NCBI GenBank assembly: GCA_964016885.1
Contig: CAXHJY010000914.1
Coordinates: 1-47,660 of the forward strand
DNA: 47,660 nt
Source of the DNA: Eledone cirrhosa
Lineage: Eukaryota
Direction of reading: 5' to 3'
The notes beneath the pieces are model-generated. The model did no database searches. It was not told where the DNA came from and worked only from the letters and a program-made list of their open reading frames with translations. Made by a program: the position numbers and the translations under genes. Shown here one piece after another: positions 11,804 through 31,104 of this stretch (position 1 is its first letter; each line of letters begins with the position of its first letter).

Positions 11804-11861
11804 ATGAAATATATGAAATATATGAAATATAAGAATCAAAGAACTGTTCAAAACATTATTG

Positions 11862-11908
11862 TGCTTACAGCTGTTTCCTCCAAACCGAGGTTTGGATTCT
11901 TCGGAGCA
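11862..11908 (-). ncRNA. Type I hammerhead ribozyme motif (mirror of 12550-12596)
   Basis: Reverse complement of 12550-12596. Confidence 0.75.
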
Positions 11909-12549
11909 ATTTATTAATGCATGGACAGTTATATGACCTCCTTTTCAGCCGAGAGACATACCAATACATATTCAAACATTGATACATATTCAAACATTGA
12001 TACATATTCTAACTGGATTGTCGTGGATTATGTGAAAGGCATATAATCGAAATATACACTCCCTTGACCATGAAAATGCCGAAGTACATGAATTACTTGA
12101 CATCCCTGCGCTGTGCATCTCCAATACTTATAACACTTTTAATGCTTACACTATCTTTAATGCTTATAATATTTCTCCACACACAGACTACATCAATCAT
12201 ATAAAGACTTTGCCACCAGATCTACCAACCTAACACTCTTATTTACCTACCTAAGTGCCTCTACCACACATATCTCTCTGCCACACTATATAAACAAGAC
12301 GCACATGCGTGCCACACATATAACATTTGCACTATATAACCACTTATCTTCATGTTGTACTTTAACCTATATCTTTGATTTTTAATTGTACCTATTAATA
12401 TAAATGTAATCTCGAAGTGTGTACTGCCACTCTAAATTCTGTAATGAATGTTGACCCACAATGTTTGAATATGTATCAATGTTTGAATATGTATTGGTAT
12501 GTCTCTCGGCTGAAAAGGAGGTCATATAACTGTCCATGCATTAATAAAT

Positions 12550-12596
12550 TGCTCCGAAGAATCCAAACCTCGGTTTGGAGGAAACAGCTGTAAGCA
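12550..12596 (+). ncRNA. Type I hammerhead ribozyme motif, CCGAAGA core variant
   Basis: TGCT-CCGAAGA-aTCCAAAC ctcg GTTTGGAg-GAAA-CAGCTG-TA-AGCA. Stems I and II pair, stem III is palindromic, and the cleavage triplet is GUA. Confidence 0.78.
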
Positions 12597-12818
12597 CAAT
12601 AATGTTTTGAACAGTTCTTTGATTCTTATATTTCATATATTTCATATTTCATATAACTGCTCTGTAAATCATCTGATGTTTTTACATTGAGCTACTTAAC
12701 TTACTGGTAATAAGGTAGTAATACATTACTGCCTACCACTATTTAGGGTGTGTGTAAAATACTTACAACTGCTTAAGGTTTTGTGTTTACATAACCATAA
12801 ATAGTATAACTAATACTA

Positions 12819-13350
12819 TATATATATGTATGCATGTATATATGTATGTATGTATGTATATGTATATATATATATATGTATGTATATGTATATATATATA
12901 TATGTATGTATATATATATGTATGTATATGTATATATATATATGTATATATGTATATGTATATGTATATATATATATATATATGTATATGTATATATATA
13001 TGTATATGTATATATATATATATGTATGTATATGTATATATATATGTATATGTATATATATATATATGTATGTATATGTATATATATATGTATATGTATA
13101 TATATATATATATGTATGTATATGTATATGTATATATATATATGTATGTATATGTATATGTATATATATATATATGTATATATATATGTATGTATATATA
13201 TGTATATATGTATATATGTATGTATATGTATGTATATGTATTTATATGTATATGTATGTATATGTATGTATATATATATGTATATATATATGTATATGTA
13301 TGTATATGTATATATATATGTATATATATGTATATATATATATGTATATA
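12819..13350. repeat. (TA)n/TATG microsatellite array
   Basis: Direct. Confidence 0.97.
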
Positions 13351-13600
13351 TGGAAAGTTATATTTAAATTGTTGGGTTACAACTAGTAAATATTTATAAC
13401 TGATATAAAAGCACTCAACAAGTATTTGGAGTATATTTACGATATTAAATAAATGGAAACTATATTTATAAAACCATATTTATCTCATTATATATATTTC
13501 AGGGATATATTAACAATATGTTATGCCTTCTTCAGACAAAATACAATATAGACAGTTTTATAAATAAATAGATTTGACATACCGTTCAACATCGACTTGT
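13351..13600 (-). mobile_element. PLE-type terminal fragment (left arm; inverted partner at 18139-18393)
   Basis: Reverse complement of 18139-18393 with about 6 differences; contains a hammerhead motif. Confidence 0.65.
13482..13542 (-). ncRNA. Type I hammerhead ribozyme motif
   Basis: Minus strand ATTTTGT-CTGAAGA-AGG...CCT-GAAA-TATATA-TA-ATGAGAT. Confidence 0.72.
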
Positions 13601-28235: not shown

Positions 28236-29666
28236 ATGGGAGCATCCGATTCATCCCAATTGACTGATTTAATTGGTATCTTCATTTTGAACTCTTTGAG
28301 TCGGAAAATTCCTCAACTTCGCGGTGGAATTTATCGTGACGATGGACTCTTTACTATCCTAAATTGCAATATAGTTAAACTTAATATTATTAAGAACAAT
28401 ATACGTAATCTCTTTAACCAACATAACCTAAAAATTGAATTTGATAATAGTACCAAACTAGCTAATTTCTTGGATGTATCTCTTAATCTTGACACTGGCC
28501 TATATTACCCTTACCATAAAAACAATGAGAATCTTAATTATGTTAACTTTAAATCTAACCATCCTACCAATATCAAGAATGCTATAGTTAATAATATTGG
28601 AAATAGAATATCTAACATATCTTCTAATAAAAACATCTTTGATGCTAACGCCAATTACTATAATAACGCACTTTCTAAAGCCGGCTATCCAGATAAAATC
28701 AAATATAATAAAGAAACAAATTCTAGGAAAACTTACAGTAGAATATTTAATCATAACCATTCCAATAATTTTAATAAAAGACCTAGATACAAAAACATAA
28801 TCTGGTATAATGCTCCTTTCTCCATCTCTATTAATAACAATATTCCTAAATTATTTTTTAGTGCCTTAAATAAATGCTTCCCTCCCTCACATATCTATAG
28901 TAAAATATTTAACAAACACACCATTAAATTTTCGTATTCTACATCCTCCAATATTTCCAACATCATTTCTAAACACAACAACAAAATATTAAATACTAAA
29001 TCTCTTCCTTCCAATATTGAATCTCATAATAACAATAATAGTACTCCTGACGTCATTGTAAACCCTAGGCTAACTTCTGTAAACCCAAATGCAACGTCAA
29101 ACACAACTTCGCTAAATGTTCATAATCCAACTCTAAATCAAGAAACTATTATTCCTATTATTCCTATCGCAAACAACTTCTCCAATCCAATTCCTTCTAT
29201 AGATAACACTAGATCACTCATTAATAATCTCTCTAATTGCAACTGCCGCATTAAAAATAAATGTCCTCTCAACAACCATTGCCTCGATAAAAACTTAATT
29301 TATGAATGTAAAATTATAACTAGCACCAACTCCTTCACCTATTTTGGCTCCACTTCCACCTCTTTTAAAGCTCGTCTCTATAATCATCATTCATCTTTCA
29401 AATACAAACTTAAAAGAACTAACACTGCTCTCTCAGAACTCATATGGTCCTTAAAAGACAAAAACATTAAATATAACATCTTTTGGAAAAAGATTTCTTC
29501 TGCATCCTCGTACTTGAACAGTTCTCTATCTAAAATCTGTAATCTCTGCCTAAATGAAAAATTTACCATTATCTCTAACCTAGAATCCATAATAAATAGA
29601 CGCTCGGATTTGTTTTCCATCTGCCTGCATAAATTCCATAGAACTTTTCACAAAGTATACAGTTAA
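28236..29666 (+). CDS. Penelope-like RT (C-terminal part) plus GIY-YIG endonuclease, N-terminally truncated by the inversion; open frame
   Basis: MGASDS (motif B), YRDDG, NFLDVSL, SNHP, IIWYNAPFS, CNC..CPL..CL, LIYECKI..YFGST..FKARLYNH, CNLCLNEK. Confidence 0.9.
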   Translation: MGASDSSQLTDLIGIFILNSLSRKIPQLRGGIYRDDGLFTILNCNIVKLNIIKNNIRNLFNQHNLKIEFDNSTKLANFLDVSLNLDTGLYYPYHKNNENLNYVNFKSNHPTNIKNAIVNNIGNRISNISSNKNIFDANANYYNNALSKAGYPDKIKYNKETNSRKTYSRIFNHNHSNNFNKRPRYKNIIWYNAPFSISINNNIPKLFFSALNKCFPPSHIYSKIFNKHTIKFSYSTSSNISNIISKHNNKILNTKSLPSNIESHNNNNSTPDVIVNPRLTSVNPNATSNTTSLNVHNPTLNQETIIPIIPIANNFSNPIPSIDNTRSLINNLSNCNCRIKNKCPLNNHCLDKNLIYECKIITSTNSFTYFGSTSTSFKARLYNHHSSFKYKLKRTNTALSELIWSLKDKNIKYNIFWKKISSASSYLNSSLSKICNLCLNEKFTIISNLESIINRRSDLFSICLHKFHRTFHKVYS

Positions 29667-29721
29667 TATTCAATTCTTTATCAATTTAGAATCTTTTCTC
29701 AAAGGCACATATACATACACC

Positions 29722-30800
29722 TCTTTAAAATATACCCATCTACCTTACTTTAAAGGGCATTATACACTCTATAGTACTCGTTTACTCATTTACCTCATCC
29801 TATCTTCTCGTAAAACAATAACATTTGTTTTTGACATTTTGAATATTCATCCGCAATCATTATTATTTTTTTTTTTCCCTCTATCATAAATCTTTTTAAT
29901 CTCAATTTCATCCTTAATTTATTATTATATATTTTTTTAAATATATACTCATATATTCTTTAAAATATACCCATCTACCTTACTTTAAAGGGCATTATAC
30001 ACTCTATAATACCCGTTTACTCATCACCCTCATTATATCTCCTCGTAAAACAATAACATTTGTTTTTGACATTTTGAGTATTCATCCGCAATCATTATTA
30101 TTTTTTCTCTCTATCATAAATCTTTTTAATCTCAATTTCATCCTTAATTTATTATTATTTTTTTCTCCCCATCAACGAACTCATTATTAATACATATGAA
30201 TTCAATATAAAAACTCTAACTTCACATTATTTTTCTCAAATCCTATACATAAACTTTTTCTCTTTGCTAATTTTAAAATTCCTACATTTCTCCTTTTGAA
30301 TATTCACCCACAATTATTATTTTTTTTTTTCTCTCTATCTCCATACATAATCTCCCTTCGTTATTTTTTTCTCTCTATCTCCATACATAATTTCCCTTCG
30401 TTAATTTTCAAATTCCTTTAATTTATACATTATCTTCCAACGGTTCCCAACCTCTCTATATTAAAACATTATATCTTTTTCTCAGTTATAAAAACTATCT
30501 CTTTCTCTCTATCACCCATCTCTCCCTTTCCACCTTCACTCTCATCTCCTCCCCTTTTTTTCATCCTTTCCACCCCCACCCCTCCCTAAATATAATATAT
30601 TTTTTCCTCGCACATATCCTCCCTTCGTTAATTTTCAAAATTTTTAATTTATACAGTATCTTCCAACGGTTTTCAACCCCTCTATATAAAATATATCTCC
30701 TCTCTGTTATAAAAACTATCTCTTTCTCTCTATCACCCATCTCTCCCTCTCATCTCCTTCCCTTTTCATCCTTTTCTCTCCCCCCCTCTCTAAATAAAAT
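29722..30800 (+). repeat. Internal direct duplications in the PLE 3' region (~235-bp, ~39-bp and ~230-bp periods)
   Basis: TCTTTAAAATATACCCATCTACC at 29722 and 29957; CCCTTCGTTAATTTTCAAA..TCTTCCAACGGTT at ~30394 and ~30621. Confidence 0.8.
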
Positions 30801-30911
30801 ATTTCTCCCAATATCACACATCAATCTAAAACCACTTTTCATATGTTGATTTAAAACTGCACTATCAACAAGTGTTTTTTTTTTTTTTAGCCTTCATATC
30901 ATGTTCTCCTG

Positions 30912-30978
30912 TTTTATCTGATGAAAACACAAATATTATTGTTTGATGATGTTTGTTTTTGAAATGCGCATAATAAAA
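30912..30978 (+). ncRNA. Type I hammerhead ribozyme, canonical core
   Basis: TTTTAT-CTGATGA-AAAC...TTTTT-GAAA-TGCGCA-TA-ATAAAA. Stem III is the palindrome ATGCGCAT; predicted cut after 30972. Confidence 0.85.
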
Positions 30979-31104
30979 TATATTGAACTCCTTTAACCAT
31001 CTTTTGATCTTATATTATGCATACTCCAGTCCCACAAACTGTAGAGTGCTTCTTATCCGATATCTGCATTGCTTTATTGTACTACAATAAAACTCACCTC
31101 CTAC

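Follow-up and report, generated by a model that had tools for sequence, protein, structure and literature searches.

A hairpin duplicated in Hydra-clade Penelope-like elements and the ends of inverted insertions in TA arrays of Eledone cirrhosa

Why should insertions in a simple TA repeat consist of two outward-facing copies of one 3′ region, with an extra tail on one of them? The question is raised by a 47,660-nucleotide (nt) stretch of Eledone cirrhosa DNA (GenBank assembly GCA_964016885.1, contig CAXHJY010000914.1, positions 1 to 47,660; hereafter the window), 49% of which is TA/TG microsatellite, the other sequence lying in 22 islands. The first-pass annotation described five inverted-arm sequences between TA arrays, here I1 to I5, and proposed that both 3′ ends of a break prime reverse transcription by annealing to AU words in the element RNA. 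Here we identify I5, by its motif set, as a Hydra-clade Penelope-like element (PLE), and describe a hairpin, duplicated in its relatives, that lies just downstream of Hydra-type insertion ends. Sequence comparison indicates that the end site is very probably set by this conserved hairpin 2–5 nt downstream, not by any AU word, and the two arm ends probably mark two start sites of the reverse transcriptase (RT).

A duplicated hairpin in relatives of I5

In 79 metagenome loci encoding Hydra relatives (from the best 80 of 462 candidates), comparison of tandem copies revealed a hairpin motif just past the element ends. Its 4-bp stem (GCUC/GAGC) carries a 2-nt bulge on the 3′ side, which reads UU, UC or UA in 56 of 59 motifs; the upper stem and loop vary, and ACU lies 3′ in 51 of 59. 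We found 57 distinct copies in 35 of the 79 loci, among them 20 pairs, in which the first hairpin lies 45–80 nt after the hammerhead and the second 56–83 nt further; the 18 pairs followed by a recognisable N-terminus stand 12–46 nt before the start codon. When 26 open reading frame (ORF) starts were scored by pattern, the 20 with at least 170 nt upstream carried two motifs in 15 cases, three in one, one in three and none in one.

The stem covaries. Across 59 motifs gathered with no pairing filter, upper pairs 1 and 2 were Watson–Crick in 50 and 36, against 30.0 and 17.3 after shuffling, and the outer pair in 50 against 41.9, while five slid controls showed no pairing enrichment. In a 50-row alignment (47 of the 57 locus motifs and three window motifs), 33 cells were changed on both sides against 9.3 expected, the outer pair occurring as G-C, A-U and U-A; four G-U cells and the one-sided bulge fit the sense orientation. 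A model built from this alignment matched 88 sites in the loci and four in the window (both I2 copies, I5 and, weakly, I1), three of the four being training rows. Rfam, run on six loci, found type I hammerheads in two and left the hairpin unmatched.

The hairpin is preceded by a TA word. Counting one locus per cluster at 80% identity, we found TA at positions −8 to −4 of 32 of 33 first hairpins (12.1 expected from the same untranslated regions, UTRs) and of 10 of 17 second hairpins (5.1 expected). The word also stands at 26 of 29 further model matches, which were not used, because the model scores that word and some matches repeat training sequences. The published Hydra-1_Ajap consensus, which begins 2 nt ahead of hairpin 1 and has a TA word at its end, is an independent match.

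Insertion ends lie just upstream of a hairpin

Twelve repeat ends have a template copy in the same contig. All five of these that enter a microsatellite lie 2–3 nt before a hairpin and overlap the repeat by 4–5 nt, three before hairpin 1 (one of them into an ATTT repeat) and two before hairpin 2; one further template-resolved end lies 4 nt before hairpin 2. At L042:2590–2660 the element stops 2 nt short of hairpin 1 with an AUAUUU word and is followed by (ATTT)n rather than (TA)n, and here the alignment word may track the target repeat. Among 21 rows that lead from a hammerhead to a TA array, six reach the array at 40–72 nt without a hairpin and ten at 102–131 nt with exactly one (one of these ten being an internal TA run before hairpin 2), and none contains two. 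Near-full-length tandem copies in L041, L042 and L062 end at the short site. At the sequence level, ends fall before hairpin 1, leaving no tail, or before hairpin 2, leaving a tail that contains hairpin 1; both sites serve as true element ends in other genomes, and tail length is likely to be the hairpin spacing.

The Hydra-type units of the window comprise the following features:

11804–11999, minus strand: I1 short arm, an inverted 3′ region with a variant hammerhead core at 11904, stopping before the hairpin
12000–12818, plus strand: I1 long copy, with a 459-nt spacer, arm 12459–12653 and a 165-nt tail, without a clear ORF
12550–12596, plus strand: I1 hammerhead-like motif, with a variant core and palindromic stem III, predicted cut after 12592
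12659–12692, plus strand: I1 Hydra-type bulged hairpin, 5 nt past the short-arm end; weakest model match (E = 0.72), 3′ tail longer by one base
13352–13602, minus strand: I2 left copy, a 5′-truncated Hydra-type 3′ end with hammerhead core at 13535 and hairpin 13410–13432, ending 81 nt past the hairpin start
18099–18392, plus strand: I2 right copy, with hammerhead core at 18205 and hairpin 18311–18333, ending 82 nt past the hairpin start
26293–28236, minus strand: I5 short arm, an inverted copy of 29075–31018 (C-terminal ORF part, 3′ UTR, hammerhead core at 26393)
28237–31104, plus strand: I5 long copy, a 5′-truncated Hydra-clade PLE with ORF 28242–29666, hammerhead and an 86-nt tail (31019–31104)
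30910–30980, plus strand: I5 type I hammerhead motif, with palindromic stem III, predicted cut after 30972
31023–31050, plus strand: I5 Hydra-type bulged hairpin, 4 nt past the short-arm end

The short arms of I5 and I1 stop 4 nt and 5 nt before the hairpin; for I5 and for both I2 copies, the distance from the hairpin start to the long end is 81–82 nt, inside the 56–83-nt spacing range. The I5 hairpin matches the second hairpin of locus L050 at 28 of 31 nt, and its outer pair is changed on both sides, from G-C to A-U. The window ends overlap (TA)n by 3, 4, 2 and 3 nt. The short arm had been said to stop at a TA word; a TA-type overlap of 3–5 nt is borne out, and the window ends taken alone are marginal in this respect (P ~0.04 against random ends in the same sequences).

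Sequencing reads of four of 12 listed runs were compared with 28237–31104, and the I5 family is present in related organisms. The short-arm end is a fixed site that recurs in a relative: 275 raw reads of run X10 leave the element at 31018 into (AT)n (among the best 20 of 561 loose ends listed), X10 being reduced-representation data in which the 275 reads possibly come from few loci. In run X7, the summed depth of contigs over 30925–31020 exceeds that over the ORF about 25-fold, which indicates that short 3′ copies dominate.

Identity and anatomy of the units

The I5 ORF encodes a YRDD palm, a thumb and a GIY-YIG endonuclease (EN) in one frame, the last with a weak Pfam match (E = 0.006, on the inverted copy). 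Its protein has 112 homologues, down to E = 3e-72 among 8000 candidates scored, with at most about 40–50% identity among those found (40% for the Argonauta hians homologue). In an alignment with 15 homologues, C333-x-C335-X5-C341, C433xxC436 and C461xH463 are invariant and CCHH is absent; the Hydra-clade signature is a CxCX5C linker, no CCHH, and CxxC and CxH around a conserved E and N (PMC8557442). A canonical hammerhead near the 3′ end and insertion in (TA)n, both Hydra-clade features, were also found in I5, and the N-terminal motifs RWK and DKT are present in its full-length homologues, the window copy being 5′-truncated. The RT–EN linker (29000–29230) holds an Asn-rich insert of about 60 residues, like the N-rich inserts in rotifer Penelopes (PMC3846280), and the 1.3-kb 3′ UTR has two internal duplications. 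No relatives were found in viral_contigs, and a PDB sequence search with a 51-protein Hydra profile gave no match.

I3 looks Neptune/Nematis-like by motif. Six-frame translation, read by eye, gave a C-X4-C-X2-C linker, then NC..VVY..C..C, a frameshift and YIGET..R..EH..H, that is, a CX2-5CxxC linker before a GIY-YIG domain with CCHH; the 106-residue piece had no homologue at E ≤ 0.001 and no Pfam match. For I1 and I2, tblastn gave no significant match to Hydra proteins (best for I1, E = 0.06), and their likely Hydra-type assignment comes from hammerhead, hairpin motif and TA target, most weakly for I1. The units are almost certainly 5′-truncated insertions of endonuclease-bearing PLEs in (TA)n, as the protein motifs of I5 establish and as is likely for I1–I3; PLE-type elements had been suggested from the outset.

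Self-comparison with exact extension showed head-to-head arms, 99.7–100% identical, in I1, I3, I4 and I5, and the one-sided tails first described in four units measured 58–165 bp in these four. The arms of I1 (11811–11999 and 12459–12647) are identical at 189/189 positions, with a 459-nt spacer and a 165-bp tail; those of I3 (13983–14634 and 15088–15739) differ at 2 of 652 positions (spacer 453 nt, 58-bp tail on the left side); those of I4 (25694–25778 and 25851–25935) are identical at 85/85 (spacer 72 nt, tail 67 bp); and those of I5 (26293–28236 and 29075–31018) differ at one of 1944 (spacer 838 nt, tail 86 bp). The remaining features are:

13925–15087, minus strand: I3 long copy, with 3′ UTR, hammerhead core at 14181 and a 58-nt tail (13925–13982)
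15091 to about 14560, minus strand: I3 coding remnant, a frameshifted thumb–linker–GIY-YIG of Neptune/Nematis type
15088–15739, plus strand: I3 short arm, with hammerhead core at 15541
25694–26002, no strand assigned: I4, 85-bp perfect inverted arms, a 72-nt spacer and a 67-nt extension on one side

An inverted 5′-truncated copy directly at the 5′ end, with a tail at one end, was found in I1, I3 and I5. I4 fits by shape alone, with no PLE coding remnant and neither hammerhead core, Hydra hairpin nor tblastn match. Eight type I hammerhead motifs, two each in I1, I2, I3 and I5, all point outward, in agreement with the first-pass annotation; in six of the eight, stem III is palindromic, as described for metazoan PLEs (PMC4209133), and the I1 motif has C at core position 4 and a mismatched first stem II pair. 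At the outer end of the I1 short arm (11804–11830) the last few bases differ by a 2-nt slip in a 9-mer repeat, and at the I1 junction (11990–12010) an 18-mer repeat occurs in a third, partial copy; the RT may have slipped both when starting and when stopping.

The I2 copies, 96.8% identical (4 mismatches and 4 gap positions), stand 4.5 kb from each other and enclose TA arrays and I3; they share the outer end base, and their inner ends abut TA arrays. On these grounds I2 was rejected as one head-to-head insertion and is likelier to be two separate solo copies. The five inverted-arm units first reported are thereby reduced to I1, I3, I4 and I5, the pair at 13351/18393 dropping out. The five sequences had also been called unrelated, which does not hold for all of them, as I1, I2 and I5 have one hairpin motif in common.

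A two-site model and its rivals

We favour the reading, drawn from sequence, in which the Hydra-type arm ends are two RT start sites, each 2–5 nt upstream of one hairpin copy. From PLE biology, a read-through RNA of tandem units would present ORF, 3′ UTR, hammerhead, hairpin 1, hairpin 2 and the next start codon, and the order hairpin 1, hairpin 2, start codon occurs in 15 of 20 related 5′ regions. The RT/GIY-YIG protein would bind a hairpin and nick both (TA)n strands; each DNA 3′ end would form 3–5 nt of pairing with the UA word that immediately precedes a hairpin, a word seen in the sequence at that position, and cDNA would start there. Because cDNA would start 5′ of the hairpin, that hairpin itself would not be copied. 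If both DNA ends were extended, one per site and each stopping early, the joined cDNAs would form outward arms with a one-sided tail, and a single successful extension would leave a solo copy with a short or a long end.

That both DNA ends are primed in one event we regard, from the sequence pattern, as the more probable course. More tentatively, the duplicated hairpin might dock two RT–endonuclease subunits on one RNA, each holding a UA word in its active site for alignment, as telomerase does, and both 3′ ends of the cut, self-complementary (TA)n might be extended at once. If true, hairpin spacing would be tail length and joined abortive cDNAs the inverted arms, and one signal would account for tails, inversions and TA targeting. 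A homodimer prediction for the homologue P0020 (residues 1–470) scored 0.00 and was counted neither way. A mechanism common to I3, I4 and the Hydra-type families is plausible by analogy with Poseidon data.

Several observations weigh against the two-site model. Of the 12 template-resolved ends, six lie elsewhere than at a hairpin: two fall within the hammerhead, one is some 10 nt past hairpin 1, and three show no relation to the motif; a clean TA array is entered by none of these six. Among the 21 hammerhead-to-array rows, five fit neither end class. In the window, which has no second hairpin, only distance places the long ends of I1, I2 and I5, that of I1 lying 160 nt after the hairpin start, outside the 56–83-nt range; I3 and I4 have no hairpin. 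The shuffle controls ignore relatedness, yet 36 loci form 33 clusters at 80% DNA identity. Hydra-type inverted units number two, and the short-with-long pairing seen in both has a chance of about 1 in 4 from the 6:9 ratio, or about 1 in 9 for three of three when I3 is included. A strand switch occurs in none of the 15 read joints listed, out of 45 from four runs, and the window junction was not recovered. In the text of PMC11167929 covered, the reported initiation site has no homology to the cut DNA. Finally, the tail-bearing copy is also the longer one, reaching further 5′, in I3, I5 and probably I1, which the two-site model allows but does not require.

The same asymmetry is demanded by the main rival, a fold-back: a single cDNA from the tail site snaps back at its 3′ end, DNA synthesis copies it, and a TA overlap serves to join the copy to the other target end. 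Nearly identical arms suit it equally, and its junction signature would be that of two joined cDNAs. We nevertheless consider fold-back rather unlikely: the short end keeps a constant spacing to a covarying hairpin on the sense strand and does not fall at just any TA word, and the near-full-length tandem copies that end at the short site indicate that it acts as a primary start. Inverted repeats occur in 11 of the 79 loci, with a complete short-and-long unit in none; L009 holds an old inverted pair, one arm of which is cut within the ORF. In L044:1200–1600, L050:2930–3120 and L063:2250–2400, two different Hydra families lie tail to tail in one short TA-rich tract.

The position of the hairpin relative to the inserted DNA bears on a second alternative, which keeps two start sites and takes the hairpins as DNA signals or EN resolution sites and the TA word as a cut site, not a pairing site. 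The tail has been ascribed to EN-mediated resolution (PMC8557442), tail-dependent recognition of Penelope DNA by its EN is cited in PMC11167929, and the hairpin pairs, mostly Watson–Crick, could form on either strand or in DNA. At the end it marks, however, each hairpin falls outside the insertion, the orientation of the four G-U cells and of the one-sided bulge is that of the sense strand, and Poseidon RT starts map onto tail ends in vitro (PMC11167929), so that we hold this alternative to be improbable. Less probable still is self-priming on an antisense transcript, which yields a head-to-head inversion and was proposed for rotifer Penelopes with palindromes at the inverted junction (PMC3846280): the junctions of I1, I3 and I5 have no local stem of more than 5 bp, their spacers measure 453–838 nt, and outer ends tied to sense-strand hairpins would be left unexplained.

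That the palindromes are fold-back or assembly artefacts is scarcely credible. Half of the window is microsatellite and the junctions were not recovered in reads of the four runs; read joints as such neither confirm nor exclude frequent inversion. A fold-back artefact is unlikely, as it would mirror array polarity: each of the six islands tested has plus-strand G in the arrays to its left and right, and no unit is mirrored. The arms of I3 and I5 moreover differ at 1–2 sites, the arm ends lie at element-defined sites, and the layout is documented for Hydra elements (Penelope-13_HM). In X10, about 160 reads each at 30945 and 30953 join the I5-family hammerhead region to RTE-family 3′ UTR-like sequence, the 12-mer of the 30945 joint recurring at window positions 32629 and 36494; we report these as chimeric or nested 5′ junctions at single loci.

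Other sequence in the window

Outside I1–I5 the window holds two RTE-like and one other RT fragment of long interspersed nuclear element (LINE) type. The RTE-like LINE, on the minus strand, has two copies (32487–34339 and 36358–39937) that are 95.8% identical, with a PHD-finger domain inserted after the RT core and a terminal (GAT)n beside TA arrays; the longer copy has one frameshift. An irregular tandem at 40099–45864, whose 560–1560-nt units share one fixed end and are each flanked by (TA)n(GA)n, extends the RTE-like copy on its 5′ side. At 18896–20727, on the minus strand, a frameshifted LINE RT fragment of CR1/L2 appearance lies between TA arrays. A two-island block is present in two copies about 6.2 kb apart (804–1436/3193–3588 and 6990–7622/9355–9750) at 99.8–100% identity, TA arrays included, which suggests recent unequal exchange in the array or an assembly duplication. 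The best 150 of 666 Rfam matches listed for the window were all microsatellite against microRNA models.

Comparison with known systems

Much of the picture is already published, namely the layout, the hammerheads, TA targeting, two internal starts and the extension of both strands; for half of the proposed mechanism there is a precedent in vitro. The microsatellite-dwelling, ribozyme-bearing system of the first-pass annotation consists indeed of PLE insertions in (TA)n and is not new (PMC8557442, PMC3846280, PMC11167929); taken by themselves, the insertions are ordinary PLE debris. Craig et al. (2021; PMC8557442) describe an inverted 5′-truncated copy beside the 5′ end, a 30–40-bp tail at one end, hammerheads in all Hydra families and (TA)n targets, and name the inverted structures and the microsatellite bias as unsolved. 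I5 shares with that clade the CxCX5C linker, the absence of CCHH, CxxC/CxH, hammerhead, (TA)n, inverted copy and tail; it differs in its long Asn-rich linker insert and 1.3-kb 3′ UTR, and tails here measure 56–86 bp, once 165 bp.

PAc, a Poseidon PLE from Anolis carolinensis, nicks each of the two strands and extends it in vitro, with two internal RT start sites that delimit the tail, an AC-rich stem-loop and a protein predicted to dimerise; steps after initiation were left untested (Frangieh et al. 2024; PMC11167929). Two starts delimiting a tail, extension of both strands, a stem-loop beside the start and an AT-rich target are common to PAc and the present elements, in the latter as read from sequence. 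PAc, however, is reported to start inside one AC-rich stem-loop, whereas here each end has its own downstream hairpin copy and a conserved TA word, and the text of PMC11167929 covered gives no model for the inverted copy. Penelope families of Adineta vaga (Arkhipova et al. 2013; PMC3846280) show the same layout, explained there by antisense self-priming: head-to-head inverted pseudo-long terminal repeats (pLTRs), an optional tail on one, and Asn-rich linker inserts. Palindromes mark the junctions there and none does here, where target-site duplications are unreadable in TA arrays.

Neither a duplicated hairpin nor a two-ended priming model for PLE inversions was found in the literature searched, a scope outside which fall most subscription papers, Repbase reports and figures. 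The word hairpin is absent from the searched text of PMC8557442, PMC4209133, PMC7229834 and bioRxiv 10.64898/2026.07.22.740005, and PMC8557442 with its supplement, as far as covered, uses neither hairpin, stem-loop nor microhomology. The duplicated hairpin is apparently an undescribed cis-signal in known elements of known layout. It makes the question of tail and inversion testable by mutation of a motif of about 30 nt or of the UA word, and its distance offers a rule for annotating Hydra element boundaries in TA arrays.

In twin priming of L1, both target 3′ ends prime on the element RNA and the joined cDNAs give an inversion. The inverted and upright parts of L1 come from different stretches of RNA, whereas here the starts are 58–165 nt apart and the arms overlap by 85–1944 nt, so that the difference from L1 noted at the outset holds, the arms being overlapping copies of the same 3′ region. 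Telomerase starts internally on its RNA, with few-base pairing of the primer to a simple repeat and a neighbouring RNA structure. The likeness, an analogy between enzymes of sister groups, PLE RTs and TERT (PMC8557442), lies in the internal start, the short repeat pairing and a nearby RNA structure that would position the template. Unlike telomerase, the elements described here would make one long cDNA, once, from an endonuclease nick.

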